From NCBI GenBank assembly GCA_030615505.1, contig JAUWZD010000007.1, forward strand, positions 4,702 to 68,701: a stretch of DNA of 64,000 nt, in the 5' to 3' direction. Made by a program: the position numbers and the translations under genes. Position 1 is the stretch's first letter. Each line of letters starts with the position of its first letter. This document shows positions 9,702 to 27,568 of the stretch, piece after piece. The notes under the pieces are model-generated. The model did not search any database. It saw only the letters and a list, made by a program, of their open reading frames with translations, and had not been told where the DNA came from. Source of the stretch: Spirochaetales bacterium. GTDB taxonomy: Bacteria > Spirochaetota > Spirochaetia > SZUA-6 > DRHE01.

Positions 9702-9719
9702 GTTAGAGCTTTCAAGAGC

Positions 9720-10199: not shown

Positions 10200-10279
10200 T
10201 ATCCGGCTCCTTATGAATTACAGAAATTACACACCTTTCAAGCGTTCGCCTATTCAAGTATACATGCCTCCGACTAAAA

Positions 10280-11449
10280 TTATTCACTCCCGGCCTCAGC
10301 CTGCAGCTCATCTTCCTTGAACACAGAAACCGGCGGTTCCTCCGCTGCATCCCTGCCCGGAACGTATTCAAACATCTCTTGCAGCTCACTCCCAATCAAG
10401 CCGAATAAACTCGATATGGGGAGATCACTGGGACAGGCACTGTCGCACATACCGCAGCCTACACAGGAGGTAGCCATGTGGCTCATTCGCGTCAGGTGAA
10501 ATATCAATGTGTCACCGGGCATTCGAATTGCTCCCCTTCGATCAGCCCAGTTCAAGAACTGCTCCGATCTATGCTCGAAAACCAACGATTTGAATACACA
10601 TTCCTTGCAATAACAGATCGGGCAGACATTCATACAGTTATGACAACGAATACAGGTGGACAGGGTTTGCATGAATTTTTCAATAATATTTACCCGCTCC
10701 TTTAATTCATCTATGACCTTAACACGCTGTTCTCTTCTCTTATGAGTAACTTTCTCTATCACTTTCTCTCTGTTGGCTGAATTTCCCTCTTTAAGCTCCA
10801 GTGAAAACTTCTGCGCCAGTTCTTTCTCAAATCGCCCACCCGCCATTAGAAGTATCTCTTTCGAATGATCAAGTCCCAAAAGACCAATGGTGATATCCCC
10901 ATTCAGCGGAACAGGATATTCACAGATCTGACAGCACTCCCGAAAGTTGTAGCCTTGCCTCGGTCTTATTTCTCCTTCGCTTGCCCCTTCTAAAAATGCC
11001 TGTGGTGAAAGCTCCCTGTCTTTCTTCACCATCTCAGCGTAATCTCCAACCTCATAAGTTCCGGGGCAATCTACGCCAATTGTCACGACATTGTCCAAAT
11101 TTACCTGCAAGAACTTGACCATCTCCACCGCCGCTCTCAGCTCACAGGGCTTCAATACGACTCCTATCCGACCATCAAAAGGGCTTGAGGTAAGCTCTGA
11201 GAGTATCCGGGCAGACTGGACCGCCATGGTAGGGGCAATCGGATTGGCGTCTTCTAACATCCTTGAGTCTTTGATCAAGCTCTGAACGAAACCGTCACCG
11301 CCTGGTAGCAGCTTTGGTACCAATAATGCCTCTACAAACTTACTTTCCATCAGTCGTCCCAAGAACTTCCGCAGACTCCTTAATGTGTCTTTATTCTCAA
11401 CCTTGATTATTGTGCTCTTCATCCTCTGTACCCCATCTAGACCATCCAT
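10280..11449 (-). CDS. FrhB/FdhB-family Fe-S flavoprotein-like, HdrA-associated
   Basis: IGVVLKPCELRAAVEMV...TIGVDCPG N-terminal domain. C-terminal CIRCHNCMNVCPICYC...CVGCGMCDSACP. Paralog of 5204..6199. Confidence 0.5.
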   Translation of the reverse strand: MDGLDGVQRMKSTIIKVENKDTLRSLRKFLGRLMESKFVEALLVPKLLPGGDGFVQSLIKDSRMLEDANPIAPTMAVQSARILSELTSSPFDGRIGVVLKPCELRAAVEMVKFLQVNLDNVVTIGVDCPGTYEVGDYAEMVKKDRELSPQAFLEGASEGEIRPRQGYNFRECCQICEYPVPLNGDITIGLLGLDHSKEILLMAGGRFEKELAQKFSLELKEGNSANREKVIEKVTHKRREQRVKVIDELKERVNIIEKFMQTLSTCIRCHNCMNVCPICYCKECVFKSLVFEHRSEQFLNWADRRGAIRMPGDTLIFHLTRMSHMATSCVGCGMCDSACPSDLPISSLFGLIGSELQEMFEYVPGRDAAEEPPVSVFKEDELQAEAGSE

Positions 11450-11859
11450 AGCTGCTTAATCGGATTGGGCCCTTTATCTTTCAGCTCTTCAACCATCTGG
11501 GCTGTTGTGTCGGCGAACAACTTCCCCTCGGACGCGCTGATCCAGCGAAGCCATATGCGGTCCTCGTCGTAACCAAAGCGATTCAGTATTTTTTTTAATA
11601 TGGTTATCCTCCGGCGTGCCTTATAGTTCCCCGTCTGGTAATGACAGTCTCCGGGGTGACACCCTCCAATCAGCACACCGTCTGCTCCTTCGATCAGGGC
11701 CTTCAGCACATATATCGTATCCACCGCTCCTGTGCACATAAGACGTACGATCCTTATGTTAGGCGGGTACTGCAGCCGGCTCGTTCCGGCAAGATCCGCC
11801 CCGGTGTAGGTACACCAATTACACAAGAATGCCACTATCCTTGGCTCAAACTCCTGCAT
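11437..11859 (-). CDS. mvhD: MvhD/FlxD-like protein
   Basis: IVAFLCNWCTYTGADLAG...GCHPGDCHYQ. Downstream of the second HdrL gene. Confidence 0.85.
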   Translation of the reverse strand: MQEFEPRIVAFLCNWCTYTGADLAGTSRLQYPPNIRIVRLMCTGAVDTIYVLKALIEGADGVLIGGCHPGDCHYQTGNYKARRRITILKKILNRFGYDEDRIWLRWISASEGKLFADTTAQMVEELKDKGPNPIKQLWMV

Positions 11860-11929
11860 AAGATTCCTCCTGATTCGGCACTAATTCTATTGGTAAAGCT
11901 CATAAAACCCGAGCAAACATTCTTATACT

Positions 11930-14900: not shown

Positions 14901-14959
14901 TGCATCCCCGCAATACCGCCGCCGATTACCAGTACATCCCTATTCATGTCCTTGCTCAT
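11930..14959 (-). CDS. hdrL: HdrL-type large HdrA-like flavoprotein (1009 aa), paralog of 6672..9701
   Basis: VIGGGIAGMQSALLL...LDRTFPTNSCGVC, FIQCVGSRD...CSSICC, second MIQCVGSRD...CSRVCC, C-terminal CxxCxxC ferredoxin domain. About 40% identical to the other HdrL by eye. Confidence 0.85.
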   Translation of the reverse strand: MSKDMNRDVLVIGGGIAGMQSALLLAEKDHRIYVLESAPAIGGFFPLLDRTFPTNSCGVCFMSPKPPAYCPIYESDFHENIELLTNCELKDLAGQAGNFEVSYVEKPRFVDIEKCDLCNRCVEVCPVEVDSELGAGIEKRKAIHLPFAQAIPRSYVIDETSCTKCGDCLKVCSPGAINLQDKSRERKLNVGAIVLGFGFEPFQGENKGEYGLGRYKNVVSSIQYERMMSFSSSTGGLPGRPSDGKRPKKVAFIQCVGSRDPSCGQGYCSSICCMYATKQAMVSKERDKELEAAIFYMDIRAMGKDYERYYERAKQEYGIRYLRSAISAVRELQRSKCLMFTYGLENGQLEEEEFDMVVLSLGFIPPARVKETAERLGVELNEYNFCLTDEFRPTETSVPGIYVAGAFREPRDIPETVVEASSAAADVSGLLDDFEQRAVEEEEFFEEKDIADEESLAIGVFICDNRGVLAQGLDIEEITRLFEQDPDIVCVEKVNITSLKKGADEIKNKIAEKELTRVVIAGHRGMALSKALRSVCKAVSTGSCLLDYANIGEQCANVHALDSPAATSKAKSLVQASLRKAKLAVPRRAGRKRVCSRVLVVGGGISGLSSGLSLAEQGMDVTLVEKSDKLGGIARTAYYTLKGSDIQALLRDMVSRVEAHPKIEVLKGSELKALEGTWGSYHSLISADGEEKEILHGAVIFATGGREALPDEYFFGKNENVLTQKSFERLLAGREEKAAKAKTVVMIQCVGSRDEKHPYCSRVCCGQAVKNALKLKELNPEADVYVLYRDMRTYGFYEKYYHEARGKGVIFVRYEPQARPEVSASSGTLRVSFFDSVVKERISLEADLLVLSSGIAPNEDNHRLAEIAGLELNADGFFAEANPKAAPLDSVDRGKYFCGLSHSPNHIGDAICQGKAAAARASALIWNAFQEYADNQAYVNERLCSGCGICVSACPYDARIIDEVSNKANVLEDLCKGCGTCVISCPNGASQQYDFERSTILDILDEVIG

Positions 14960-14979: not shown

Positions 14980-15834
14980 CTATAAGAGATTCCGGGACTC
15001 TAAAAGAGCTCTTGGATTCATTACATGTTTATCCCACCACTCATCTCTTCCCGGAAGATCCATAGCTATTCCCATCAGTTCCGTGAAATAGAACACAGGT
15101 AGTTTGGCATGGTTCCTGCCCGATTGCCTCATGTCCAGGTTAATCTGGCAGAGCCCACAGCTGACCATCGCGCAATCCGCCTCAGCCTCTAGCGCCATTC
15201 CGGTGATCTTGTCCGCTATCCCCACGGCTATCTTCCCGTGGGACATCCCCAGATCAGCACCGCAGCAGTCTGTCTTGTAGGACCAATCCAGTGCCTCGCC
15301 GCCCAGAGCCGTTACAATATCGTCCAGGAACATCGGGTTCTCAAAATCACCCATCTGTACAACCTTGGGGTCACGAACAAGAGCGCATCCGTAATAAGAG
15401 ACTACCTTAAGTCCGGAAAGCGGTTTCTTTACGTGGCTCTTCAGCCTATCCAGACCGACCTGGTCGAGAACCACATCGTGCATCAGCTTTATTTCCAGAT
15501 CCCCTCTGTACTTGAAGCCCACGATACCCTCGAGCTTCTTCCTCATATCGGGGTCATTTAAAAGTGCGTACTGAGCCCTCTTGACGGCATTGAAACAGCC
15601 TGCGCAGGGAATCGCCAGGGGTAAATCCCGCATCTGTGCCCTGGCTATGTTCCTGGCAGGAAGAGCAAGCCCGAGCAAATTACTCAAGCTGTGAGCGGCG
15701 GCAGCTCCGCAGCAGTTCCAATCATCTATCTCCATCAACTTGACTCCCAACTTATCAAAAACAGCGTGCAGGGAAAGGCTGTATTCAATACCTGTCGAAT
15801 GTGCCGTACAGCCGGGATAAAAAGAAACTTCCAA
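14980..15834 (-). CDS. hdrB: Heterodisulfide reductase subunit B-like (two CCG domains)
   Basis: YPGCT...CCGAAAAHS and later YYGCALVRD...CCGADLG, i.e. two CCG cysteine-rich domains. Confidence 0.85.
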   Translation of the reverse strand: MEVSFYPGCTAHSTGIEYSLSLHAVFDKLGVKLMEIDDWNCCGAAAAHSLSNLLGLALPARNIARAQMRDLPLAIPCAGCFNAVKRAQYALLNDPDMRKKLEGIVGFKYRGDLEIKLMHDVVLDQVGLDRLKSHVKKPLSGLKVVSYYGCALVRDPKVVQMGDFENPMFLDDIVTALGGEALDWSYKTDCCGADLGMSHGKIAVGIADKITGMALEAEADCAMVSCGLCQINLDMRQSGRNHAKLPVFYFTELMGIAMDLPGRDEWWDKHVMNPRALLESRNLL

Positions 15835-15837
15835 TGA

Positions 15838-16398
15838 TTATTCCTCTCTTTCCAGTTGGCCTTTGGTCTTGTAGGCCTTCTCATACAGCTTCCGTATCTC
15901 TTCGATCCCCTCCATCTGCTTGGGTATGAACGGAATCTTTCCCTTAGCCATCAGTGTGAGTCCTGAGGGCATTGGTGAGAAAAGATCAAGAGTTCGGATC
16001 ATATACGCTACGAAGAAGGTGGCCTCGTGCAGCCGGCCCCACATCTTGATTGACCTCATGAACTCTTCATGTAACTGTACTACGTTCCTCTCGGCCTCGT
16101 AGGCGCAGCCTTCCTCTATAGATAACTCCCTGAGGGTGTCCATGACCGCGCTCATATCTACCTCGTTAGGGCATCTCGCCCCGCAGGTCATGCAGGATAC
16201 ACAGAGCCAGATAGCGTGGCTCTTTAATACCTTCTCTCTCTCCCCGTACTGGATCATGCGTATCAAGGCGTTGGGCTTAAACTCCATATAAGAGGAGAGC
16301 GGGCACCCCACAAAGCATTTTAAACACTGGTAGCAGGCTTCAATGTTTTGTCCGCTGCGCTCCCTTACTTCCTTGATGAAACTCCTGTCTCTTTTCAT
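15838..16398 (-). CDS. hdrC: Heterodisulfide reductase subunit C-like (2x[4Fe-4S])
   Basis: CYQCLKCFVGCP and CVSCMTCGARCP. 3-bp gap to hdrB. Confidence 0.8.
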   Translation of the reverse strand: MKRDRSFIKEVRERSGQNIEACYQCLKCFVGCPLSSYMEFKPNALIRMIQYGEREKVLKSHAIWLCVSCMTCGARCPNEVDMSAVMDTLRELSIEEGCAYEAERNVVQLHEEFMRSIKMWGRLHEATFFVAYMIRTLDLFSPMPSGLTLMAKGKIPFIPKQMEGIEEIRKLYEKAYKTKGQLEREE

Positions 16399-16401: not shown

Positions 16402-19400
16402 CTACTCCAATGCCGCGCTGACCATTTCAAATAATTGTTTCGCCCTGAATCCAAGCTGTTGCACAGCTCCCGAAGGACAGGCGCTTGCACAGGCCCCACA
16501 GCCCTTACACAGAGCCGCGTTAATTTTAGACACTCTCTTTCCCCTCACCGTAACTATCTCAGGTGCGTCATAGCTGCAAACAGAGACACAAATACCGCAG
16601 GCTGCACACACATCCTCATCCACAGAGCAGACGATTGCCTCCGGCGTGTATTCTGCCTTGGATATGATCGTGGCGGCACGACTGGCCGCTGCTTCGGCCT
16701 GGGTAATCGTCTCTTCGACATTTTTAGGTGCATGAGCCATGCCGGCAAGGAAGACACCGTCTACGGAGAAATCCACCGGACGCAGCTTCATATGAGCTTC
16801 AAGGAAAAACTTCTCCTTAGTCAGGGGGGTTTTAAGCATTTTTGCAATATCCTCCACATCGTCCTGTGGCACTATGGCCGGTGCAAGTACAAGAAGATCG
16901 CTGTCGATCTGCAGCATGCTTCCCAGGATAGGATCCTTGGTCTCGATCCGTAATCTTCCATTGGCCGCAGACACAAGCGGCTTCTGATCCACATCATAGC
17001 GGACAAACCTTACCCCCTTCTCTCGTGCCGCCGTATAATACCTCTCCCGGAAGCCATAAGTTCTCAGTTCCCGATACAGGATAAATACGTCCGTTTCCGG
17101 ATAATCCTCTTTTATTTTAAGCGCGTTCTTGATCGCCTGCGAGCAGCATATTCTGCTGCAGTACATCCTGTCCCCTTCGCGTGAACCAACGCATTGGATC
17201 ATCACCACCCTCTTTGCCTCGAACTCTCCCCGGGCAAGCTTTTCCTCCAGCTCACGCTGGGAAACTACCCTTTCCTCGGAGCCGTACATGTACTCGTCGG
17301 GCATACGTTCCCTGGCCCCGGTGGCTACGATTACTGCGCCGTGTTCAATCTCAGCTTCTTTCCCGTCCTGCGTGATCGCGGTCTTAAAATTGCCGACAAA
17401 CCCGTCAACGGATTTTATATTCGCGCCCATCCAGACCCTGATATTCGGATGGTTATTGACCTTCAGGATCATCTCTCCAAGCTGTCTCTGCGGATCTTCT
17501 GCACCAAGAAGGTAGTGCACATTCTTGAGATTTCCACCAAGTTCTTCCTCTCTTTCTACGATATTCACCTCGAAGCCCTGCTCAGCGAGATTGAGAGCCG
17601 CAGTCATTCCACCCATGCCGCCGCCGATGACCAGAGCCCCGCTCTTGACCGGTATGGGCATGCTGTAGAGAGGCTCTATCAGGCGGGCCTTGGCAACTGC
17701 CATACGAACCAAATCCTTGGACTTTCTCGTCGCTTCTTCCGGTTGGTGCATATGTACCCAGGAGCACTGGTCTCGGATATTCGCCATCTCGAAAAGATAA
17801 GGATTTAGACCCGCATCCCGAACGGTTTCCCGGAATAGCGGCTCATGAGTGCGGGGGGTGCAGGATGCGACCACAACCCTGTTGAGATTGTACTCCTCTA
17901 TCGCCTTCTTGATGCTTTCCTGAGTATCGATGGAACAGGTGTAGAGGTTGTCTTGGGCAAAAACAACGTCAGCTAACGTCTTGGCATATTCACGTACCTC
18001 AGGTACGTTTACTACTCCGCCGATGTTCACACCACAGTGACATACGAAAACGCCTATGCGAGGTCTTTGACCGGATACGTCTCTCTCGGGAGGCCATTCC
18101 TTCTGCGTCACAAGGGTACCGCGCTTCTCAGTTAATAGGGCCATAGCCTTTGCTGATGCGCTCGAGGCCTCCATCACGGTTTCCGGAATGTCCTTCGGCT
18201 CGGAAAACGGCCCACAGACGTATACACCCGGCCTTGACGACTCTACAGGATTGAACATTGAGGTTAAGGCGAACCCATTGCTGTCGAGCTCCACCTCGAA
18301 TTTCTTTGCCAGTTCCTTGACCTCCGCAGGTGGACGCAGTCCTGTCGAAAGAACAACAAGGTCGAACTCCCTGGTGACAAAATGGTTATCTTCATCGGTA
18401 TAACCGATACGGAGGTTCCTGGTCTGCTCTATCTCTTCAACAGAGGAGGGCCGACACCGGGTGTAGATTACACCCAGCTCTTTGGCGCGTTCGTAGTAGG
18501 CATCGAAGCCCTTGCCGAAGGCCCGCAGATCCATAAAGAAGATATTGCACTCAAGGTCCTCCTCATGTTCCATGGAGATGATAGCCTCCTTGGTAGCGTA
18601 CATGCAGCAAACCGACGAACAGTAGTTTCGTTCCGCGTCCCTTGACCCGACGCACTGGATGAAGGCGATCCTCTTTGGCGCCTTGAGGTCTGATGGACGG
18701 ACGATCTTCCCCCCATGCGGACCGCTTGCTGAGAGCAAGCGCTCGAATTGGAGACTGGTGATTACGTTCGGATACCAGGCATAGCCCAGCTCAAGCTTTT
18801 GACCTGCCTCGAAAATACAGTAGCCGGGAGTAAGGATGGCAGCTCCAACCTCGATTTCGACGACCTCGTCTTCCTGCGAATAGTCTATCGCCCCTGCCGG
18901 GCAGAAGGCCTCACATGCCTTACAGGCGCCGGTAAGAAAATGTATGCAGTGCTCTCTGTCGATTACCGGCACGTTGGGAAGAGCCTGGGGAAAGGGAATA
19001 TAGATGGCAGGTCGACTTACAAGCCCGGCATTATAGTCGGAGGCTATAGGCCGGGCTTGTCGGGTAGCAACATCTTCCACGGTCGCTGTACTGGTCGGAC
19101 ACACAACCTGGCAGGCCCCGCAGGCCATGCAGATAGGTGAATGTTTGTCATAGGCCGGCCCGACCTTACGGGTGTCGCCGCGGCCGCTGAAGTCGATCGC
19201 TCCTGTTTTCATCAGCTCTGAGCATACTCTGGTGCACAGGCCGCAGAGTATGCAGTCTTCGTTCTTCTTCGGGAAACGAGTATCAGTGACCCCAAGCTCC
19301 GCAGCGACCTCTTTTACCTTCTCCGAATCCGGGCACCGGGCCAGGAGGAGTTCCGCCATGATCCGCCGCGTCCTTTGCACCTTCTCGCTGTTTGTGCGGA

Positions 19401-19632
19401 CCACCAGACCTTCCTGCAAAGAGAAGGTACAGGCAGCCTTGAGCTGAGTGCGTGCCCGCTCCCCCACCTCTACCAGGCAGAGGCGGCAGGCGCCGTAGCT
19501 GGGTAAGCCTTTGCGATAGCAGAGAGTGGGTATCTTTATGCCCAACTCCTGGCAAGCCTCCAGGACGGTGCTGCCTGATTCCGTGCTCACCTGCCGGTCG
19601 TCGATTTTTAGGGTGATCTTACTCATAGGCAT
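16402..19632 (-). CDS. Fusion protein: NuoG/HydA-N-terminus-like [2Fe-2S]+[4Fe-4S] domain joined to an HdrL-like flavoprotein that lacks the N-terminal FAD-binding segment (1076 aa)
   Basis: N-terminus ITLKIDDRQV...CYRKGLPSYGACRLCLVEV (plant-type 2Fe-2S as in NuoG/HydA), then CILCGLCTRVC and CMACGACQVVCP. The HdrA body picks up at IPFPQALPNVPVIDREHCIHFLTGACKACEAFCP, which aligns to the HdrL region after residue ~130. FIQCVGSRD...CSSVCC, then a second FAD domain with MIQCVGSRE...CSRICC. Confidence 0.8.
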   Translation of the reverse strand: MPMSKITLKIDDRQVSTESGSTVLEACQELGIKIPTLCYRKGLPSYGACRLCLVEVGERARTQLKAACTFSLQEGLVVRTNSEKVQRTRRIMAELLLARCPDSEKVKEVAAELGVTDTRFPKKNEDCILCGLCTRVCSELMKTGAIDFSGRGDTRKVGPAYDKHSPICMACGACQVVCPTSTATVEDVATRQARPIASDYNAGLVSRPAIYIPFPQALPNVPVIDREHCIHFLTGACKACEAFCPAGAIDYSQEDEVVEIEVGAAILTPGYCIFEAGQKLELGYAWYPNVITSLQFERLLSASGPHGGKIVRPSDLKAPKRIAFIQCVGSRDAERNYCSSVCCMYATKEAIISMEHEEDLECNIFFMDLRAFGKGFDAYYERAKELGVIYTRCRPSSVEEIEQTRNLRIGYTDEDNHFVTREFDLVVLSTGLRPPAEVKELAKKFEVELDSNGFALTSMFNPVESSRPGVYVCGPFSEPKDIPETVMEASSASAKAMALLTEKRGTLVTQKEWPPERDVSGQRPRIGVFVCHCGVNIGGVVNVPEVREYAKTLADVVFAQDNLYTCSIDTQESIKKAIEEYNLNRVVVASCTPRTHEPLFRETVRDAGLNPYLFEMANIRDQCSWVHMHQPEEATRKSKDLVRMAVAKARLIEPLYSMPIPVKSGALVIGGGMGGMTAALNLAEQGFEVNIVEREEELGGNLKNVHYLLGAEDPQRQLGEMILKVNNHPNIRVWMGANIKSVDGFVGNFKTAITQDGKEAEIEHGAVIVATGARERMPDEYMYGSEERVVSQRELEEKLARGEFEAKRVVMIQCVGSREGDRMYCSRICCSQAIKNALKIKEDYPETDVFILYRELRTYGFRERYYTAAREKGVRFVRYDVDQKPLVSAANGRLRIETKDPILGSMLQIDSDLLVLAPAIVPQDDVEDIAKMLKTPLTKEKFFLEAHMKLRPVDFSVDGVFLAGMAHAPKNVEETITQAEAAASRAATIISKAEYTPEAIVCSVDEDVCAACGICVSVCSYDAPEIVTVRGKRVSKINAALCKGCGACASACPSGAVQQLGFRAKQLFEMVSAALE

Positions 19633-20081
19633 TCACCTTTTCTAGTGTCAAAGCGGGTAACATCTGTACCTCTCCTGTGCTCGTAGAGGAAATCGACCCC
19701 GCGATGCCCCGCCACCAGTGTCTCCAGGGTAGCGTAAGTGTCGCCCAGTGGTTTGCGGTCAGGATGGCTGCGGCGGAAGGTTGCCCTGATCCTCGTGCCG
19801 GCCTCCGGCCTGGAGGATATTTCAAACTTACCCTCTGCTTCCCTGGTTGCTTGAGCCAATAGTGCCAGGCCCAACCCGATTCTCTTTTCAGACTTTGTGG
19901 TAAAGAAGGGATTGGCTGCCTGGCGCATTGTCTCCGAATCCATACCCTTGCCGTCATCCTCGATCTGAAGGGTAAGCAGGTCATTTTCCAGGTCCTCGAC
20001 CAAAGAGATCCCGATCAGTTTTGCCTCAGCGCGGATCGAGTTCTCTACGATGTCCATAATATGAAACGATAGATCTTTCAT
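19623..20081 (-). CDS. GHKL-type ATPase (HATPase_c, anti-sigma regulatory factor-like)
   Basis: IEDDGKGMD...GLGLALL motifs; 152 aa with no kinase H-box. Confidence 0.6.
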   Translation of the reverse strand: MKDLSFHIMDIVENSIRAEAKLIGISLVEDLENDLLTLQIEDDGKGMDSETMRQAANPFFTTKSEKRIGLGLALLAQATREAEGKFEISSRPEAGTRIRATFRRSHPDRKPLGDTYATLETLVAGHRGVDFLYEHRRGTDVTRFDTRKGECL

Positions 20082-20797
20082 TGCCCTGTAATTATCCTCC
20101 GTCCCCCTGTTCGCCTGAGGGCCATCCCTATCTCCGCTGCTGTTCCATTCTCAACTAGAAAGCAAGTCTGCCTGGTACCGATCTCCCCGGGACGGTGAGC
20201 GTCCGAAGACCGAATCACAGGTGTATTTCCAGGCAGTGCAGGTAGTCTTTCGGAGCATACCTCCACCCCGTCCAGCTTCAGGTCCTCCGGGATGAATCCG
20301 AGCTGGCTGAGCACGCTGAAGCTAGGACGGTCCACATGAGATGCTATCGCCAGGCCATTGAACTCGTGGATAATCCGCACGACTTCATCCAGACTCAGAT
20401 CCGTGGCCCCGATCAACAGCTTCCGATTGCGGCGGATCACCCTGTCCTGTCCATCCATCACCAGTTGTTCACCGAAGATGCCGGGATCGTTCTCGCCCGG
20501 GAGATTGTCATAGATGACATCCTGAACCGCACTCAGAAGGCGGTCCTCCTGGAAGAGCCCCAGCACATGCACTTCCTCACGGGAGGTTATCTCCATACCT
20601 CCGATCACGGCCAGCCCAACCTTTTCTGCTGCTCGGACCACCGCCTGGACGTTCTCCGCTGAGTTGTGGTCACAGATCGCAATCAGATCCAATCCTTTCT
20701 CTCGAGCTTGCCTGGTCACCGTCAAAGGAGACATCTCCCTCTCTGCGCACGGTGAAAGGCAGGTATGTATATGCATATCAGCATGCAGTGCCCTCAC
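20078..20797 (-). CDS. PHP-domain phosphoesterase
   Basis: N-terminus ADMHIHTCLSPCA, then DLIAICDHN, the PHP metal-binding histidine/aspartate pattern. Confidence 0.7.
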   Translation of the reverse strand: MRALHADMHIHTCLSPCAEREMSPLTVTRQAREKGLDLIAICDHNSAENVQAVVRAAEKVGLAVIGGMEITSREEVHVLGLFQEDRLLSAVQDVIYDNLPGENDPGIFGEQLVMDGQDRVIRRNRKLLIGATDLSLDEVVRIIHEFNGLAIASHVDRPSFSVLSQLGFIPEDLKLDGVEVCSERLPALPGNTPVIRSSDAHRPGEIGTRQTCFLVENGTAAEIGMALRRTGGRRIITGQ

Positions 20798-21165
20798 TTC
20801 CTGATTCCGGACAGGCCCAGATTGTACAGCCGGCCTATCAGCTCGAAGGCCGGAAGGGCGCTGACCAGCAGCGGAATATTCTCTTCCCTGGCCTTCTGGA
20901 GGGTATCTGCTTCGGGCTCACGCCCGTTGACCAGGACTATTCCAGCCAACCCTTTCATGCTCGCTACGGCGACGGTGTTCTGGTGCGTTTGCAGAGTCAC
21001 CCACAGGTCCCCTTCCTCAGCGTTAGCTATCACATCGCTGATCAGATCGCTGGCGTATCCCCCCTGCACCTCGTTCGAGAGTGAACCATTGCCGGCCTTC
21101 ACTTCAAGCTTAAGCCTTTTTGTGATCTCACTCAGATCCATCTTCGTTCCCCACCAGAATCTCAA
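20794..21165 (-). CDS. DRTGG domain protein
   Basis: ASDLISDVIANAEEGDLWVTLQTHQNTVAVASMKGLAGIVLVNG matches the DRTGG domain pattern. Paralogous to 22074..22478. Confidence 0.6.
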   Translation of the reverse strand: MRFWWGTKMDLSEITKRLKLEVKAGNGSLSNEVQGGYASDLISDVIANAEEGDLWVTLQTHQNTVAVASMKGLAGIVLVNGREPEADTLQKAREENIPLLVSALPAFELIGRLYNLGLSGIRK

Positions 21166-22117
21166 CTTTTAGCCTCGTCCCTTTGCCTACAGTTGAGCTA
21201 AGGTTCATTCTGTCAGAACACTTCTGTATATTGTGAAGGCCCATTCCTGCACCAAATCCGAGCTCCCTCACCCACTCCGGGGCTGTGGAGAAGCCCGGCT
21301 TAAGGGCCTGATCGATATCCGGAATCCCGGGGCCATCATCCTCCACCTCGATCTGGATAATTTCAGGCTCGATCTTCGTCTTTATTTTTCCGCCATTGGT
21401 GAAAAATATTAGATTCATCTCCGCCTCGTAGGTGGCAATGGCGGCTCGGCGTGTGATCTGGGGGGATATTCCCAGCCGCAGAAGGGTGGTTTTTAGACCG
21501 CCGGCGCTGTTGCCTGCCCGGCTGAAATCCCCTCCGCTCACCTGGTACTCAAAGATCAGCGCGCTCTTGTCGGCAACTATATCCTCGAAGATATGGCTCG
21601 ACCTGGTGCTGTGTATCTCCGCCTGGCGGTAACCGATATCTAACTTTTTAAGCAGTCCCCCGATAATGTCGCCCTTGGTGATCACCCCGGTCAGCTTTCC
21701 GATCCCCCTGGCGAGTACCGGCAGTCGGCCGAAGCCGAACCGCTCAAGATTGTTGAACGCCTGGATGAGGGGTTCATCCTCAAAAACGCTGATGACCTTT
21801 CTGGTCATTCGATCAACTACGGCACAGTCAGGCCCACCGTCATATAGCCACCTGATGAAATCCTCCAGGCTGATGATACCTACCAATCGTCCTTCCTCGA
21901 CTACTGGTGTACCGGAGATGCGATTATCTCGCAAGACTGCCCGTAGATCGCTCATCTGGGTTGAAGGGATGACTTTGATAACCCCCCTCTTCATCACATC
22001 GCCGACCCGGAGCTCATAAACGAGCTCCTGAATCTTGGTTATTTCTCTTTCTATCAATGGGAGTTTACCCTCCTTATCTAGCCCCGACGGCCAGGCCCTT
22101 TGAGTACAGCCGGCCAC
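21128..22117 (-). CDS. CBS-pair plus GHKL ATPase domain protein
   Basis: Two CBS-like segments (VMKRGVIKVIPSTQMSDL...; VDRMTRKVISVFEDEPL...), then IEVEDDGPGIPD...GFGAGMGLHNIQ (HATPase_c). Confidence 0.7.
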   Translation of the reverse strand: MAGCTQRAWPSGLDKEGKLPLIEREITKIQELVYELRVGDVMKRGVIKVIPSTQMSDLRAVLRDNRISGTPVVEEGRLVGIISLEDFIRWLYDGGPDCAVVDRMTRKVISVFEDEPLIQAFNNLERFGFGRLPVLARGIGKLTGVITKGDIIGGLLKKLDIGYRQAEIHSTRSSHIFEDIVADKSALIFEYQVSGGDFSRAGNSAGGLKTTLLRLGISPQITRRAAIATYEAEMNLIFFTNGGKIKTKIEPEIIQIEVEDDGPGIPDIDQALKPGFSTAPEWVRELGFGAGMGLHNIQKCSDRMNLSSTVGKGTRLKVEILVGNEDGSE

Positions 22118-22478
22118 AAGATTCGTACATCAACAGTTGCGTAACGAACAGCGGCATCCCCTTCTCCTTAGCCAGCGTGATTGTTTCCGGCTGGGGTTTC
22201 TTACCACGGACGAAGCATATAGCGGTTAAATCCAATATTTCGGCCGTGCGTATCACCTGCGAATTGGTCAATCCGGTCAAGAGCAGAGAACCTGGAGTGC
22301 AGCAGGTCAGCATATCGCTTATGAGGTCGCTGGCGTGGCCTGAGCTGACCTCCTGGTCGCCGCAGTCGGTGTTCCAGACCAACTCCGCTTGGAGAACCTG
22401 CTGAACGTCTTGCAGCTTCACTGCACCGTTACCGCCTCGGACCTGCAAACGTCTCGGCAAACGCCGCACTTGATGCAC
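22074..22478 (-). CDS. DRTGG domain protein (start uncertain; ORF overlaps the NuoF-like gene by ~60 nt)
   Basis: HASDLISDMLTCCTPGSLLLTGLTNSQVIRTAEILDLTAICFVRG; paralog of 20794..21165. Confidence 0.55.
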   Translation of the reverse strand: MHQVRRLPRRLQVRGGNGAVKLQDVQQVLQAELVWNTDCGDQEVSSGHASDLISDMLTCCTPGSLLLTGLTNSQVIRTAEILDLTAICFVRGKKPQPETITLAKEKGMPLFVTQLLMYESCGRLYSKGLAVGAR

Positions 22479-24211
22479 TTCTCCTGATCAATGGTCTGCG
22501 GTTTCCCCTTCTCGCCCGAGATCGCCTGCTGCGGGCAATTCTTTACACAGAGCAGGCAGGCATTGCACTTCTCCGCATCGATGGTATACGTTATCAGAGC
22601 CCTGCAGACACCTGCCGGACAGCGCTGCTCATTGATATGCGTCTCGTACTCATCCTTGAAGTAACGCAAGGTGCTCAATACCGGGTTCGAAGCCGTAGCG
22701 CCCAACTGGCAAAGGGAGCCGTCCTTTACCGCCTGGCTCAATTCCTCGAGCAGCTGGATATCCCCCTGATTGCCCTTGCCATCGCAGATATCTGTAACGA
22801 TCCGATACATGGCATCCACTCCCTCGCGGCAGGCGGTGCACTTTCCGCAAGACTCGCTCCGCAAGAACTCGAGGAAGTATCTGGCCACATCGACCATGCA
22901 GTTATCCTCATCCATCACAATCATCCCGCCCGAGCCCATCATCGAGCCGACCTCGGTCAGGCGCTCGTAGTCTATCGGTAGGTCCAGGAGGGACGCCGGG
23001 ATACATCCACCTGAGGGTCCTCCCGTCTGCACAGCCTTGAAGGCCTTGCCGTTCTCCATCCCGCCGCCGATATCGAAGATGATCTCTCGCAGCGTGATAC
23101 CCATTGGGACCTCAACCAGGCCGGTGTTCCTCACCTTGCCAACCAGTGCGAAGACCTTGGTTCCCTTGCTGGTCTCCGTGCCGATCTGTGAGAACCACCC
23201 TGCTCCCCGCTTGATAATCTCGGGGACGATTGCCAGTGTCTCCACATTATTGAGAACCGTCGGCTTCTCCCATAGTCCTTTCTCGGTAGCGTGAACTTGC
23301 TTCGAGAACGGCTCCGGCGGATCTCCCTGAATCGAGGCTCTCAGGGCACTGGACTCACCGCAGACAAACGCCCCAGCGCCCCTGAACACGGATATATCAA
23401 AGTCAAATCCTGTCCCCAGAATGTCATGGCCCAGGAGGCCGTATTCCATGGCCTGCTTGATGGCCAGGTTCAGCCGTTGCAGTGCCAGGGGGTACTCCGT
23501 GCGGATGTAAATGTAGCCCTGGCCGGCGCCTACTGCCTTGCCTGCGATAGCCATACCTTCGAGTACGGAGTGAGGATCACTTTCTATTATGCTTCTATCC
23601 ATAAAAGCGCCGGGATCGCCTTCGTCGGCATTACATATGATATATTTTTCCTTGCTGTGATGACTTGCAGCTGATTCCCATTTCCTCCCGGTGGGGAAGC
23701 CGGCGCCCCCCCGCCCGCGGAGACCGGAATCCTTGACAGTCTGGATGATCTCCTGGCTGGTCATTGAGGTGAGGGCCCTGGCCAGCGCCCGGTAGCCTCC
23801 TCGGGCAATTGCTTCCTCGATCTTCTCAGGGTCGATCATTCCGCGATTGCGCAGGGCGATCAGCCGCTGCTTCTCGAAGAAATCAATCTCACTCATCTTC
23901 GGGACCGGCGCTTTCTCAAGCGAAGGAGTGTACATGAGCCGCTTGACCGGACGCCCTTTCAAGAAGTGCTCCTCGACCAGGTGGGGAATATCCTTCTCGG
24001 AAAGAAGCTGGTAAAAGATATTGTCCGGCTGGACGACCATTACCGGGCCCTGGGCGCAGAATCCGTTGCAGCCGGTCATGACAACGGCGATCTCATCCTG
24101 TAGCTCATGCTTTCCCAACTCCTGTTCAAGGTCGGCTTTAATCCGAAAGGACCCGTTCGAGACACAACCGGTTCCGGCACAGAGCATTAGATGCATCCGG
24201 GACTTTTTCAT
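22418..24211 (-). CDS. NuoF/HydB-like NADH-binding FMN flavoprotein with N-terminal thioredoxin-like [2Fe-2S] and C-terminal 2x[4Fe-4S] (bifurcating-hydrogenase beta-subunit type)
   Basis: GRGGAGFPTGRKWE (FMN/NADH site), ESCGKCTACREG (NuoF 4Fe-4S), N-terminus CAGTGC...CNGFCAQGP, C-terminus CNACLLCVKNCP / CIKCGVCRDVC. Confidence 0.9.
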   Translation of the reverse strand: MKKSRMHLMLCAGTGCVSNGSFRIKADLEQELGKHELQDEIAVVMTGCNGFCAQGPVMVVQPDNIFYQLLSEKDIPHLVEEHFLKGRPVKRLMYTPSLEKAPVPKMSEIDFFEKQRLIALRNRGMIDPEKIEEAIARGGYRALARALTSMTSQEIIQTVKDSGLRGRGGAGFPTGRKWESAASHHSKEKYIICNADEGDPGAFMDRSIIESDPHSVLEGMAIAGKAVGAGQGYIYIRTEYPLALQRLNLAIKQAMEYGLLGHDILGTGFDFDISVFRGAGAFVCGESSALRASIQGDPPEPFSKQVHATEKGLWEKPTVLNNVETLAIVPEIIKRGAGWFSQIGTETSKGTKVFALVGKVRNTGLVEVPMGITLREIIFDIGGGMENGKAFKAVQTGGPSGGCIPASLLDLPIDYERLTEVGSMMGSGGMIVMDEDNCMVDVARYFLEFLRSESCGKCTACREGVDAMYRIVTDICDGKGNQGDIQLLEELSQAVKDGSLCQLGATASNPVLSTLRYFKDEYETHINEQRCPAGVCRALITYTIDAEKCNACLLCVKNCPQQAISGEKGKPQTIDQEKCIKCGVCRDVCRSEAVTVQ

Positions 24212-24597
24212 AGCGCCTGCTCACTGCCAATGGCCAGGGCGTAATCGGCAACGATCTTGCCGCCCATAACGTGCTCTGTAAATATCTTATTCACCTTCTC
24301 CTCTGTGAGATCTATATATTTAACCGGGGCTTGCCCTTCAAGCTCGACGGTCATCATTGGCTCCTTGCTGCACAAGCCTGCGCAACCGGAGCTAGTGATG
24401 ATAATATCGCCAGTATCGAGCTCGCTAACGCATTCGATCACGGCAGACATTATTTTACGCGCCCCGGCAGATATCCCGCAGGTCCCCATGTGGATAGTAA
24501 TCTTGGCCCGCCCCGATCCTTCGCGCAGAGACATCACCTTTTTCATACGCTCGGTAATCTTGTCAAGATCCTCTGGTCGCAGCTTAGCCATTTTCAC
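24208..24597 (-). CDS. Thioredoxin-like [2Fe-2S] ferredoxin (HndB/NuoE-like small subunit)
   Basis: ITIHMGTCGISAGARK...SSGCAGLCSKEP. 129 aa, typical small subunit of NADH-dependent hydrogenase/FDH modules. Confidence 0.7.
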   Translation of the reverse strand: MKMAKLRPEDLDKITERMKKVMSLREGSGRAKITIHMGTCGISAGARKIMSAVIECVSELDTGDIIITSSGCAGLCSKEPMMTVELEGQAPVKYIDLTEEKVNKIFTEHVMGGKIVADYALAIGSEQAL

Positions 24598-24605
24598 TTC
24601 CTTCG

Positions 24606-25505
24606 CTAGGCAGGATATTTGTCCAGCGCCTTAACTATCTTTTGCGGGGTAATTTTGCCGTAAACATCTTCATCGATGGTCACTACTGGTGCCAGGCCGC
24701 AGCAGCCCAGACAGCGCACAGCTTCCAGCGTAAAGCGTCTATCCCCGGTTGTTCTGCCGGCTTGAACATCAAGCTCCCGCTCAAGGCTTTCCAGAATCCG
24801 CGAGCCTCCCTTAACATGGCAGGCGGTCCCCAAACACACCCTGATGATATGCTCGCCCCGGGGCTCGAGGCTGAACACGTTGTAGAATGTAGCGATACGC
24901 AAGACCCGTGATAGAGGTATTCCAACGGCCTCGGATACATGCCGCATCGCGCCAGGCGGGAGCCACTTGTACCTGGCGTTAATGTCCTGAAGGATAGGGA
25001 GAACCGATCCCCTTTCTCCCTCATGTTCGGCGAGGATTCGGTTCACCTCGCTGAGCTCGCCGGGAGTGAGCTCCAGCGGCTCCGGTTCCGCGGGTTCAAC
25101 ATAGGCCCTGTTCCTCACCAAACAGTTCGCCATGCACTCTCCGCAGCCTGTGCATTGATCAGCTTTTACCGAGCGAGCCTTTTTCCTGACGCGGACTTTG
25201 AAGGCCCCAGGTTCTCCCTCTATGCTTTCAACTTCTGAGTAGGTAAGCTTCTCAATGTTTATGTGGCTCCCGCACTCTACCATTCTTGGTGCAAGTGTGC
25301 ACATTGCACAGTCATTGGTTGGAAAGGTCTTGTCGAGCTGGGACATGACCCCGCCGATAGCGGGACTTCTTTCCACCAAATAGACCTTAAACCCTGCATT
25401 TGCCAGGTCTAAAGATGCCTGCATACCTCCGATGCCTGCCCCCACAACCAGGACTGAACCCACCTTGTTATTACTACCCTGACTACTCAAAGCCATAGCC
25501 TCCAC
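24606..25505 (-). CDS. Fusion protein: HdrA N-terminal FAD-binding segment joined to a NuoE-like [2Fe-2S] domain; first gene of the operon
   Basis: Residues 1..~130 (VLVVGAGIGGMQASLDLANAGFKVYLVERSPAIGGVMSQLDKTFPTNDCAMC...CTGCGECMANC) run parallel to the first ~130 aa of both HdrL genes. The remainder (LPILQDINARYKWLP...RVCLGTACHVKG...CLGCCGLAPVV) is a NuoE/24-kDa-subunit fold. Confidence 0.8.
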   Translation of the reverse strand: MEAMALSSQGSNNKVGSVLVVGAGIGGMQASLDLANAGFKVYLVERSPAIGGVMSQLDKTFPTNDCAMCTLAPRMVECGSHINIEKLTYSEVESIEGEPGAFKVRVRKKARSVKADQCTGCGECMANCLVRNRAYVEPAEPEPLELTPGELSEVNRILAEHEGERGSVLPILQDINARYKWLPPGAMRHVSEAVGIPLSRVLRIATFYNVFSLEPRGEHIIRVCLGTACHVKGGSRILESLERELDVQAGRTTGDRRFTLEAVRCLGCCGLAPVVTIDEDVYGKITPQKIVKALDKYPA

Positions 25506-25610
25506 GCCCTGTTTCGCTATTACAATTATTCTGATTCAACCAAGGAACTCTGTCAATCAGAATCGTCCATTTTTTCACGGAAAGATCGATCCTTAGTGTA
25601 GCTGATTCTA

Positions 25611-26420
25611 TTACTCATTGCTGCGTTTGCGCCTGCCCCAGGCTATTTTTGAAATCCAGATACTAATCTCATACAATATAATTACTGGAATCGCCAGCAT
25701 AAACTGGGTAAATATATCCGGGGGTGTTAGAATAGCTGATAATATAAACATCAGAAGAATAGCGTATTTTCTTTTTTGAGCTAAGAACTTGGGTGTAACA
25801 AGTCCTATTCTGGTGAGAAAGAGAATTACTAAGGGTAACTCAAAAATCAGTCCAAAGACTGATATTAATAATATAATTATAGATGTATACTTACTGATGG
25901 TAAACATCGGTTTTAAGCCGCTACTGACACTTATCAGAAAGTACAATCCTGCCGGAGACATAATAAAATATGCAAATAGAGCTCCCGCTGCAAATAGAAG
26001 AAAAGATATTGGAAAATAAATAAAGATAATCCTGCGTTCCTTTTTCTCCAGTCCTACTGAAATAAACTTCCATATTTGATAGATAATAAATGGCAGTACT
26101 ATTATAATCCCACTAAAAAATGATACCTTTAATTTTACTATAAAACCTTCAGATGGTCCTATGTAGTGTAAGTCGAATTCCGGATTTTGCAATTTGGCCC
26201 TGACTGATTTAACTAATTCTAAAAAGGGACTGCCCAAAGCAAAGGGATTATCTTTTTTTCCGCTTAAGGCATCCAGGGGGCCGCGTATGATATCCAGGAT
26301 TAAAATATCATAACATAAATAACTGACAATCATTCCAATCACGACAGCCACAAGGCAGAATATTATCCTCATCCTCAACTCACCGAGGTGCTCAAGTAAT
26401 GATTTTTCTTCGTCTATCAA
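25611..26420 (-). CDS. tatC: Twin-arginine translocase subunit TatC (TTG start)
   Basis: LLEHLGELRMRIIF at the N-terminus, six hydrophobic helices, ILTPPD motif. RBS GGGGAG 6 nt upstream of the TTG. Confidence 0.9.
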   Translation of the reverse strand: MIDEEKSLLEHLGELRMRIIFCLVAVVIGMIVSYLCYDILILDIIRGPLDALSGKKDNPFALGSPFLELVKSVRAKLQNPEFDLHYIGPSEGFIVKLKVSFFSGIIIVLPFIIYQIWKFISVGLEKKERRIIFIYFPISFLLFAAGALFAYFIMSPAGLYFLISVSSGLKPMFTISKYTSIIILLISVFGLIFELPLVILFLTRIGLVTPKFLAQKRKYAILLMFILSAILTPPDIFTQFMLAIPVIILYEISIWISKIAWGRRKRSNE

Positions 26421-26509: not shown

Positions 26510-27568
26510 AAAATGATTATCCGGTTCCCTAAGGTTCTTCCTTCAAAATAAAGAGATAGGATGCAACCATCCTGTAAGCTTACCTGAAGCATATAAATCC
26601 TCATAAGTTGGTCCACATTTTTGACTTGCCAATCCCAAGATTGTCTGGAAAGCTGCCATGGGAGTTCTTCGCCTATTATGTCGAAAGACAAACTCATTCA
26701 AGTATGCTTGCAAGTGCTTTCCACTTACTCCGTGATGTGTGCCTTCGAGCCAAACCTTCAAATTGCCTATGGTGCGGTGAATGTGCTCAAGTTCCTTAAT
26801 ACTAACAACTTCATGTATATAGCCTGCCTTATTCAAACCGTCATAACCAGACCAATCATCTGTATAAACTAACGAACCAGGTTCTACATTGCCTTCAACA
26901 AATCCAATAAGAGTTTCACCTGAAACATCAGGGATAACATTTAACCTTAGACGCCCAACACGTTTCTTCTTTGTTGGTTCATCGATAACTTCTATCGCAC
27001 CAGCAACAATTGTTTTTCCTGACACTCCACGACCTCGTTTTCCCGCTTTTGAGGCCCCAATATATGTTTCGTCGACTTCTATAACACTGTGGATTCTATC
27101 ACGATCTGGACGTACCATCGCTGCACGGAGCTTGTGCAGAATTTGATAAGCTGTTTCATATCGATTTATGCTAAGCTGTTTCTGGAACTGAAGAGCTGAA
27201 AAACCTGGTGTATGAGTGGCAACAAGATAAGCACCCCAGAACCATATCACTAATGAAGTTCTTGTACCATGCATGACAGTTCCTGCCGTAATGCTAGTTT
27301 GATTCCCACATTCCGAACATTCAAGTCTACGATAGGTTTCTATATTGTAAGGATCAGCATTAATCTTACATTTAGGGCAAATAAACCCATTGGGCCAACG
27401 GCATTTATAAAGGTAGTCTATGCAAGTTTTTTCGTCAGGAAACCAATGTTGAAATTCAAGGAGTGTTTTCGGAAATGGAATTTTACCTCGCTCATGTCCA
27501 TTCTTGATTTTTTGCACAAATATTATGCTACTTCAGATCACTTCCTTAGTAAACCGGATAATCATTTT
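26510..27568. mobile_element. IS1595-family insertion sequence (ISXO2-like transposase) with ~25-bp imperfect terminal inverted repeats
   Basis: IRs aaaatgattatccggttccctaagg (26510..26534) and ccttagtaaaccggataatcatttt (27544..27568), 2 mismatches. A single transposase ORF lies inside. Confidence 0.75.
26543..27517 (-). CDS. IS1595-family (ISXO2-like) transposase with N-terminal zinc-ribbon
   Basis: CIDYLYKCRWPNGFICPKCK...CSECGNQTSITAGTVMHG (zinc ribbon), then DETYIG...TDDWSGY...YLNEFVFRHNRR, the ISXO2-like DDE domain. Confidence 0.85.
   Translation of the reverse strand: MQKIKNGHERGKIPFPKTLLEFQHWFPDEKTCIDYLYKCRWPNGFICPKCKINADPYNIETYRRLECSECGNQTSITAGTVMHGTRTSLVIWFWGAYLVATHTPGFSALQFQKQLSINRYETAYQILHKLRAAMVRPDRDRIHSVIEVDETYIGASKAGKRGRGVSGKTIVAGAIEVIDEPTKKKRVGRLRLNVIPDVSGETLIGFVEGNVEPGSLVYTDDWSGYDGLNKAGYIHEVVSIKELEHIHRTIGNLKVWLEGTHHGVSGKHLQAYLNEFVFRHNRRRTPMAAFQTILGLASQKCGPTYEDLYASGKLTGWLHPISLF

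Follow-up and report, generated by a model that had tools for sequence, protein, structure and literature searches.

We analysed a stretch of 64,000 nucleotides from a Spirochaetales bacterium (GenBank assembly GCA_030615505.1, contig JAUWZD010000007.1, positions 4,702 to 68,701), called the window below, whose minus strand carries between about 3300 and 25505 a tightly packed series of genes; from 25505 to 14980, neighbouring genes in the list of open reading frames (ORFs) overlap or are separated by gaps of less than 10 nt. The two genes of main interest encode proteins A and I, between which one flavoprotein unit of the HdrA type appears to be divided, each part being fused to a subunit of a Bfu-type module of the kind found in bifurcating HydABC hydrogenases. 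Flavin-based electron bifurcation is fundamental to how anaerobes conserve energy. Window coordinates are used throughout, and the reference proteins A, B, C and I are named from the operon at 3326–25505.

Domain architecture of the operon proteins

Protein A (299 aa, 24606–25505, minus strand, as for all the operon genes below) consists of an HdrA N-terminal fragment (residues 17–131, nt 25113–25457) followed by a NuoE/HydC/BfuC domain with a thioredoxin-like [2Fe-2S] fold (residues 152–297, nt 24615–25052). Residues 17–130 align with residues 8–127 of an unsplit HdrA of 1009 aa encoded in the same operon (11930–14959; 41% identity, E=9e-27), residues 17–135 match the solved methanogen HdrA structures 8rvu (153–271, E=1.9e-39) and 5odc_A (146–257, E=3.7e-36), and residues 17–131 correspond to positions 141–256 of the NCBIfam HdrA2 profile (4e-44). 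This fragment carries the GxGxxG motif (aa 22–27), the sequence FPTNDCAMC (aa 61–69) and a ferredoxin motif CxxCxxCxxxC (C118–C128). Pfam gave only generic FAD-Rossmann matches at residues 17–116, but a generic Rossmann FAD fold was rejected, as the fragment matches HdrA profiles specifically, including the FPTNDC and ferredoxin motifs. The second part of the protein matches the HydC/NuoE subunit of a bifurcating hydrogenase (8a6t_C residues 15–160, E=4e-45) and the NuoE-type Pfam family PF01257 (residues 155–297, 2.4e-49).

Protein I (1076 aa, 16402–19632) begins with a BfuA/NuoG-like head (residues 1–185, nt 19078–19632) and continues as the remainder of a tandem HdrA. Its residues 4–204 match the N-terminal iron-sulfur (FeS) domain of BfuA/HydA proteins (9mqx_A, E=9e-32, 9MQX being the structure of the WorABCSL Bfu enzyme; 8a6t_A, E=5e-29), with one [2Fe-2S] site (C38, C49, C52, C68) and two [4Fe-4S] motifs (C127–C137 and C168–C178). 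The His-ligated cluster A3 has no counterpart, its motif HxxxCxxCxxxxxC being absent as in Type 2 BfuA. Residues 168–1071 align with residues 115–1004 of the 1009-aa protein (41% identity, E=0). After the head come the loop of the inserted ferredoxin (inserted-Fd) domain, its motif 2 (C229, C237, C240, C244), the rest of the TrxR1 domain with K348, the N-terminal domain of the second HdrA unit (CHCG at 531), TrxR2 and a C-terminal 2x[4Fe-4S] domain. The sole GxGxxG of protein I is located at aa 670 in TrxR2, that is, in the second HdrA unit, and the CCMYATK (K348) and PKDIP motifs of the first unit are retained.

The HdrA2 profile is covered by protein A at positions 141–256 and resumed by protein I at position 247, so that both proteins abut at the first Cys motif of the inserted-Fd domain. 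The C168–C178 motif of protein I, which aligns at this junction, is the second [4Fe-4S] motif of the BfuA-like domain: in I, the motifs of the BfuA head are followed by the loop DYNAGL...PFPQALP and then by a third motif, C229–C244, and this loop and third motif correspond to the inserted-Fd loop and second motif of HdrA. As C168–C178 belongs to BfuA, motif 1 of the HdrA unit lies on A and motif 2 on I. The Cys count agrees with this assignment, the BfuA head being self-sufficient and HdrA motif 2 on I needing motif 1 on A. The eight Cys of the inserted domain are thus divided (C118–C128 on A, C229–C244 on I), and the elements of the HdrA FAD domain are divided too, with GxGxxG and the Cys pair on A and K348 and PKDIP on I, neither chain holding the complete set. 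With these motifs shared between A and I, the prediction is that the FAD pocket and the inserted 2x[4Fe-4S] domain are each composed of both chains. In position, C66/C69 of A and K348 of I match the C59–C62 disulfide and Lys280 of BamE, which the cryo-electron microscopy preprint on class II benzoyl-CoA reductase (BCRII) places beside the bifurcating FAD, Lys280 being described there as a hallmark of that flavin (bioRxiv 10.64898/2026.04.10.717634). These data support a single HdrA-type FAD/ferredoxin unit split within its inserted-Fd domain, the N-terminal piece being carried by a NuoE/BfuC subunit and the C-terminal piece by a NuoG/BfuA-like head, and we infer from the sequences that A and I physically reassemble.

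Protein C (597 aa, 22418–24211) is a full-length HydB/BfuB flavoprotein, whose residues 4–593 align from end to end with the bifurcating HydB structures 7q4v_B and 7t2r_B (E about 1e-235). The alignment takes in the N-terminal Trx-like [2Fe-2S] and C-terminal 2x[4Fe-4S] ferredoxin domains with their Cys, which separate BfuB from respiratory NuoF, in addition to the FMN/NADH site and the NuoF [4Fe-4S] cluster (Pfam PF01257, PF01512, PF10589 and Fer4). The defining features of Bfu enzymes are found in the operon as BfuB (C), BfuC (A 152–297) and the BfuA FeS domain (I 4–204).

Between A and C lies protein B (129 aa, 24208–24597), an HndB-like, thioredoxin-like [2Fe-2S] ferredoxin with a weak PF01257 match (9e-5), and between C and I a putative regulatory cassette of five genes (19623–22478), assigned with Pfam and NCBIfam as a DRTGG protein (22074–22478), a CBS+GHKL protein (21128–22117), a second DRTGG protein (20794–21165), a PHP protein (20078–20797) and a GHKL ATPase (19623–20081). 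Protein I is followed by the partner set of HdrA: an HdrC-like 2x[4Fe-4S] subunit of 186 aa (15838–16398; Pfam Fer4_8/17, NCBIfam HdrC and QmoC below curated cut-offs), an HdrB-like subunit of 284 aa with two CCG domains (14980–15834; PF02754 in two stretches, NCBIfam HdrB) and, after the BamE-like tandem HdrA of 1009 aa (11930–14959), which may belong to the same assembly as A and I, an MvhD-type [2Fe-2S] adaptor (FlpD) of 140 aa (11437–11859; PF02662, 1e-51).

The original prediction, made from the letters and the ORF list alone, had already placed these elements: the first 130 residues or so of A collinear with an HdrA-like protein and giving way to NuoE, I starting with a NuoG/HydA-like module and resuming HdrA where A stops, inside the inserted-Fd domain, and the HndB-like, NuoF/HydB-type and regulatory genes in between, followed by hdrC and hdrB. 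The domain searches on both proteins bear out these boundaries, with E-values that chance could not nearly account for, and the alternative of an unrelated FAD fold fails against the HdrA-specific matches. Its phrase "HdrA in place of the hydrogenase H-cluster" describes the arrangement fairly, because a BfuA head followed by a catalytic module mirrors HydA. In contrast, its name HdrL for the 1009-aa proteins was not appropriate: these lack the GltD module that defines HdrL and are BamE-like tandem HdrAs, no Fer4_20 or GltD-type match being found by Pfam in A, I or either of the two 1009-aa proteins.

The operon continues with Hdr-related genes (3326–11449) whose membership in the complex is uncertain. 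They were identified with Pfam and NCBIfam as an FrhB/FdhB-like FeS protein (10280–11449), a second HdrC-like gene (9720–10199), a second tandem HdrA of 1009 aa (6672–9701), an FrhB-like gene (5204–6199) and two Flx-like genes, one sulfhydrogenase-beta-like (4186–5235) and the other for a gamma-like FAD/NAD subunit (3326–4189). The N-terminal [4Fe-4S] domain of HdrA has a CxCG motif that is present in I (CHCG at 531) and in the paralogue at 6672–9701 (CRCG at 466) but missing from the HdrA at 11930–14959; as only one of the three tandem-HdrA paralogues is without it, they may differ in cluster content. No hydrogenase genes were found in the window, and no AOR-type protein among the assigned operon genes (3326–25505) or in the annotated related loci. 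Promoter-like and terminator-like sites between 8000 and 27000 were no better than in shuffles (14 versus 15.4 and 21 versus 16.7, respectively); a TTGACA-17-CAGAAT site at 25528–25556, upstream of A, was not used as evidence.

Conservation and sister arrangements

The distribution of the two fused proteins was followed in a search of 5.8 billion proteins and in a scan of GTDB species genomes, which kept 80 loci whose ORFs were classified with the window proteins. In the protein search, the architecture of A was present in more than 120 clusters at 68–91% identity, with source labels that include Planctomycetota, Bipolaricaulota and Spirochaetes, and that of I in more than 120 clusters at 59–92% identity. 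The closest relatives are metagenomic, the best genome match being a Spirochaetes metagenome-assembled genome (74% identity for A, 81% for I). At least 12 phylum-level lineages carry the split and fused family; the record titles name Spirochaetes, Planctomycetota, TA06, Cloacimonadota, Eubacteriales, Melioribacter, Acidobacteriota, Fibrobacterota, Gemmatimonadota, Sumerlaeia, Bacteroidetes, several orders of Desulfobacterota and one archaeon.

Synteny was counted in the 38 species-level loci whose sequence continues for 7.5 kb or more downstream of the A-type gene. Both a NuoF-type gene and the HdrA remainder (labelled HdrL in the counts) accompany the A-type fusion in all of them, with the NuoG-like head on that remainder in 36 and MvhD downstream of I, usually directly after it, in 33. 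Protein B (19 of the 38) and the regulatory cassette (12, in the same order between C and I) are optional. The whole cassette recurs in metagenome contigs, where the gene order of the window is seen too, and a Spirochaetaceae chromosome carries, without B and without the regulators, the order A, C, I, hdrC, hdrB, tandem HdrA, mvhD, FeS protein, HdrC-like, FrhB and tandem HdrA, so that the gene order of the 3326–11449 region is partly conserved there.

Ligand conservation was read from an alignment of 20 constructs from genome loci (A + linker + I(1–518)), used for this purpose only; a MAFFT alignment that combined the chimera with A and I homologues not paired by locus was discarded, the A homologues having ended up on the second TrxR domain. 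Among these paired sequences, 49–79% identical, the ligands are invariant: on A, G22/G24/G27, F61–C69, motif 1 and the four NuoE Cys; on I, the BfuA Cys (A1 and the two [4Fe-4S] motifs), motif 2, CC-K and PKDIP.

These data bear on a trivial explanation of the locus, in which A and I would belong to two adjacent independent enzymes or derive from a decayed or misassembled hdrA, the N-terminal fragment being a remnant and I having a first domain without FAD. In its favour, I alone has no dinucleotide-binding motif for TrxR1, and complex formation is read from the sequence. However, the fragment is 60–90% identical across phyla with every ligand invariant, is recoded with selenocysteine (Sec) in many genomes and is kept as a separate small gene where it is unfused, and it co-occurs with an I-type gene in all 38 loci. 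We therefore hold this explanation to be very improbable. An assembly artefact, named in the original prediction as what could undo it, is excluded by the presence of the same architecture in dozens of independent assemblies, and a pseudogene was likewise rejected on conservation, Sec recoding and synteny.

Two sister arrangements are seen at the same domain. In the first one, unsplit proteins of about 1500 aa show 63–69% identity to A over their first 130 residues or so and 50–57% identity to I over their last 850 or so, and carry a GltD/NfnB-like module (Fer4_20 + Pyr_redox_2) between both parts. Examples are found at 10004–14473 of locus L081, 9950–14986 of L046 and 9983–14416 of L072, and in about 15 further loci. 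It was to such proteins that the name HdrL was originally given, as a "heterodisulfide reductase/glutamate synthase fusion" (PMC2702500). The GltD insert sits after the PFPQAxP loop, in the same domain as the Bfu breakpoint and about 35 residues downstream of it; the idea of an identical residue for both was rejected on this alignment. The inserted-Fd domain looks like a recurrent grafting site for modules that oxidise NAD(P)H.

In the second arrangement, found in at least 15 loci of Desulfobacterales type, the N-terminal fragment is a separate ORF of 118–134 codons that ends 5–12 aa past motif 1 and is followed, in another frame, by a separate nuoE gene (9998–10381 in L060 and 9998–10375 in L063; also L048, L050, L052, L056, L057, L061, L064, L065, L067, L068, L070, L071 and L074). 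In this free ORF an in-frame TGA takes the place of the second Cys codon of FPTNDCAMC, a recoding to Sec detected in about 25 Desulfobacterota loci, at the position that matches the BamE C59–C62 disulfide beside the bifurcating FAD. Selenocysteine use is known in HdrA-type proteins, and the recoding of this Cys argues that the fragment is catalytically important. Such small genes are likely to be missed by gene callers.

Protein A of the window uses Cys, not Sec, at position 69 despite Sec machinery nearby, which comprises SelB (37284–39242), SelA (39292–40716) and tRNA-Sec (40741–40834); an AIR-synthase-related protein (AIRS/AIRS_C, 31867–32856) may be SelD. The window also includes, on the minus strand (47737–50844), a molybdopterin oxidoreductase in two ORFs of 192 and 838 aa joined by an in-frame TGA (HQARI-U-HSATVA), which is on this account a selenocysteine formate dehydrogenase of the FdnG type, followed by a 4Fe-4S subunit (46945–47736), an NrfD-like membrane subunit (46052–46942) and FdhE (45014–45892). 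Immediately upstream of the operon lie tatC (25611–26420) and an IS1595-family transposase (26543–27517), and the G+C content is about 0.55 inside the operon but only about 0.38 at 26–30 kb, a break that may mark the edge of a transferred block.

In addition, some loci of the family show notable neighbours or fusions. A complete rnf operon with apbE lies directly upstream of the cassette in the metagenomic locus L001 (3464–9465), whose A homologue is 74% identical to A, and links the cassette to the NADH and ferredoxin pools. In the Planctomycete loci L003 (2252–7574 and 19265–20897) and L086 (13268–17237), MvhD and the small and large subunits of a [NiFe] hydrogenase are encoded directly downstream of I. 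L003 has a second small and large pair upstream, with a PAS histidine kinase and a sigma-54 regulator as neighbours; this pair could be a regulatory H2 sensor, hinting at H2-responsive control. Finally, BfuB is fused C-terminally to a GltD-like module (Fer4_20 + Pyr_redox_2) in some family members (4117–7185 in L086), with NuoF-type ORFs of about 1020–1185 aa also in L009, L011, L012, L017, L034 and L036, which suggests an extra NADPH site within the same complex.

Proposed electron path and its alternatives

The domain identities, the split point, their conservation, the synteny and the invariance of the ligands are the observed basis from which the wiring, the direction of electron flow and the substrate are proposed here. 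We consider it rather probable, judging from the gene sequences, that the operon encodes one multi-subunit flavin/FeS enzyme joining two different electron-bifurcation modules, with NADH and ferredoxin as the preferred donors. The first module, for NAD(H) and ferredoxin, would be of the HydBC/BfuBC type: protein C and the NuoE domain of A would make it up, and its FeS outlet would be the BfuA-like head of I. The second one would comprise a BamE-like tandem HdrA flavoprotein together with HdrBC and MvhD. Both would be covalently interlocked, the first HdrA unit being broken just past motif 1 of the inserted-Fd domain, in such a way that the candidate bifurcating FAD site is built from two chains, A giving GxGxxG and C66/C69 and I giving K348 and PKDIP, with the inserted 2x[4Fe-4S] domain likewise made of motif 1 from A and motif 2 from I.

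In this proposal, electrons would pass between the FMN/NADH and ferredoxin site of BfuBC, clusters A1, A2 and A4 of BfuA, the composite inserted-Fd clusters, the Cys (or Sec) pair and the HdrA FAD. From the flavin, one branch would lead through HdrC and HdrB to a thiol/disulfide substrate and the other, by way of the C-terminal ferredoxin domain and then MvhD, to a partner that varies. The Bfu clusters are placed beside the inserted domain because the BfuA motif is close to motif 2, while motif 1 stands on the BfuC chain. For the window, the preferred direction would be the oxidation of NADH and reduced ferredoxin at the Bfu module, with the HdrA flavin reducing the disulfide at HdrBC and the MvhD-linked acceptor. 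This choice of donors is consistent with the input role given to the NAD(P)H-oxidising GltD-type module of HdrL (PMC2702500), and the rnf operon beside the cassette of L001 is cited with it. The path from NADH, with or without ferredoxin, to a heterodisulfide or DsrC that the original prediction suggested is compatible with the data as one of several wirings and directions that fit them.

Several observations weigh against this proposal. The reassembly of A and I is drawn from sequence comparison, and an AlphaFold2 model of A 1–136 with I 187–1076, run in single-sequence mode, was uninformative (pLDDT 35, pTM 0.29). The HdrB-like subunit scores 157 bits for an NCBIfam cut-off of 345, the HdrC-like subunit falls below the equivalog cut-off for methanogen HdrC, and no dsrC was found in the 64-kb window. 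In the solved BCRII, the inserted-Fd domain is the low-potential output to BamBC, and BamGHI confurcates NADH and reduced ferredoxin, BamE being fed by way of BamI, the C-terminal ferredoxin domain and BamF (10.64898/2026.04.10.717634). As Bfu feeds that enzyme through the C-terminal ferredoxin and BamF and not through the inserted domain, either the proposed wiring or the proposed direction may be mistaken; as Bfu is spliced here into the output domain of BCRII, either its wiring or its role differs from that complex. To the same side belong the Planctomycete cassettes with an Mvh-like [NiFe] hydrogenase, which fit H2 as donor and Bfu as acceptor, and the upstream [NiFe] pair of L003, which fits this as well.

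Two readings of the complex take up these points. In the first one, Bfu would be the acceptor on the low-potential arm: a mid-potential donor docked through MvhD, either H2 by way of the Mvh-like hydrogenase in Planctomycetes or the FrhB-like and Flx-like modules in the window, would reduce the FAD, the high-potential electron going to HdrBC and the low-potential one through the inserted Fd and BfuA to NAD+ and ferredoxin. The inserted Fd is indeed the low-potential output of methanogen HdrA and of BamE, and Bfu is spliced precisely there (10.64898/2026.04.10.717634); MvhD follows I in 33 of the 38 loci, and L003 and L086 add the hydrogenase subunits, L003 with its extra pair. However, sending electrons of very low potential to NAD+ would be a waste of energy, the window itself has no hydrogenase, and the GltD sisters carry at the same spot an NAD(P)H-oxidising module that has been read as an input (PMC2702500). 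This rival has to be taken seriously, particularly for the Planctomycete versions with a linked hydrogenase, though on balance it is unlikely.

The second reading keeps the wiring of Bam, from BfuA to the C-terminal ferredoxin domain of I, MvhD and the FAD, so that the inserted Fd would stay free as an output of low potential, to ferredoxin or to a partner, and the fusions would act as tethers for stoichiometric assembly. This path has been resolved experimentally in the sole solved complex of HdrA and Bfu, BCRII (10.64898/2026.04.10.717634), MvhD is nearly always present, and I keeps an intact C-terminal 2x[4Fe-4S] domain. Against it, the inserted-Fd loop and motif 2 come within about 50 residues after the second [4Fe-4S] motif of BfuA in a single chain, motif 1 is joined to BfuC, and the GltD-type relatives insert their FeS/flavin module into this very domain. 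The Bam wiring appears distinctly doubtful, more so than Bfu as acceptor.

For the whole family, we would suggest only tentatively, with slightly more doubt than confidence, a broader reading: a widespread and undescribed class, present in at least 12 phylum-level lineages, could hard-wire two unrelated bifurcation sites, the HydBC FMN site and the HdrA FAD site, through the low-potential inserted-Fd arm, with a bifurcating FAD pocket and a 2x[4Fe-4S] domain each made of two chains. Energy would pass from one site to the other without free ferredoxin, and the overall reaction would be determined by plug-in partners (HdrBC, Mvh hydrogenase, Flx-like or FrhB-like modules). The gene structure is in any case unusual, a flavoprotein being split in a cofactor-binding domain and its halves fused to subunits of another enzyme; if the proposal is true, an operon has in effect been spliced into a gene, and the family is a natural experiment on the recombination of bifurcation modules. 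It would also correct annotations such as "NuoE family protein" and "FAD-dependent oxidoreductase", expose the small selenoprotein genes that escape gene callers, and point to an unrecognised route linking the pools of NADH, ferredoxin, thiol/disulfide and, in some lineages, H2.

Comparison with known systems

With the MvhAGD-HdrABC and FlxABCD-HdrABC complexes, the family shares an HdrA FAD domain with inserted and C-terminal ferredoxins, MvhD, and HdrBC with CCG domains; the Planctomycete members also carry Mvh-like hydrogenase genes, as in the first of them. However, HdrA is in both a single chain that forms a homodimer, its inserted domain reduces ferredoxin directly, and NADH enters Flx-Hdr through FlxA-D (MvhD-like) and not through a NuoEF/Bfu module. 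As in the HydABC/BfuABC enzymes (FeFe-HydABC, NiFe-HydABCSL, NfnABC and WorABCSL), BfuB is kept from end to end together with BfuC and the BfuA head, an HndB-like subunit and regulatory genes lie inside the operon, and, as in Type 1 Bfu enzymes, a catalytic module follows the BfuA head at its C-terminal side. In contrast to all of these, the fused "third-substrate" module is here a bifurcating-type HdrA flavoprotein, and BfuC itself carries a piece of HdrA.

HdrL, in the sense of Strittmatter et al. 2009 (PMC2702500), is an HdrA/glutamate-synthase fusion of about 1500 aa, with Desulfobacterium autotrophicum and the HdrABC/HdrL of Syntrophobacter as examples. It has in common with the present family the tandem-HdrA backbone followed by MvhD and an NAD(P)H-oxidising graft between motifs 1 and 2 of the inserted-Fd domain, but its graft is a single GltD/NfnB-like domain in cis, in an unsplit protein without NuoE/F/G-type subunits.

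No Hdr-fused type was found in the parts of the 2022 Bfu survey that were covered; the types named in those parts are FeFe, NiFe, Fdh, Nfn, F420, Wor, Bam, Codh, Por, Mbh, Nuo and Rub, and 18 of 57 Bfu clades are given there as uncharacterised (PMC9304861). The gene order nuoEFG-mvhD-hdrA has been reported in Desulfotignum phosphitoxidans, a candidate carrier of this family (PMC4046663), with no description of a fission or fusion. In the full-text literature searched, no description of the split and fused family was found, a prior mention being possible in Appel et al. 2021 (BBA Bioenergetics) and Pereira et al. 2011.

The closest known system is the class II benzoyl-CoA reductase of Geobacter metallireducens, Bam[(BC)2DEFGHI]2 or Bam-Bfu (Schut et al. 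2022, PMC9304861; Appel et al. 2026, 10.64898/2026.04.10.717634). It combines, as here, a HydBC/Bfu-type NADH/ferredoxin module (BamGHI) with a fused-dimer HdrA (BamE), to which BamF is added as MvhD-like adaptor and BamD as HdrBC-like subunit; the bifurcating FAD has the same Cys pair and Lys nearby, and the small BfuA is likewise without the His-ligated cluster. The statement of the original prediction that the architecture is not recognised from described Hdr, Flx-Hdr, Qmo or HydABC systems holds in this light for the split and fusion, which were not found described, and fails for the combination of HdrA with NuoEFG/Bfu subunits, for which BamDEFGHI is the precedent. The differences are nevertheless several. 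BamE is intact in Bam-Bfu, with BamG (NuoE) and BamI (NuoG-like) as separate subunits, and the preprint description sets it apart on this point from the split and fused proteins A and I; its Bfu module joins through BamI, the C-terminal ferredoxin and BamF; its inserted Fd feeds the tungsten enzyme BamBC, AOR-type BamB and BamC being absent here; HdrB and HdrC, fused in Bam, are separate here; and the present family extends over at least 12 phylum-level lineages, not aromatic degraders alone.

In conclusion, with the Bam-Bfu precedent existing and the fission and fusion undescribed in the literature searched, the family is classed with the double-module enzymes of HdrA type and Bfu type, a kind already known, of which the split and fused variant is new. 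The BCRII preprint describes two different modules of flavin-based electron bifurcation in one complex as previously unreported (10.64898/2026.04.10.717634); the family found in the window would be a second example of such a pairing, far more widespread than the first and joined at another connection point.

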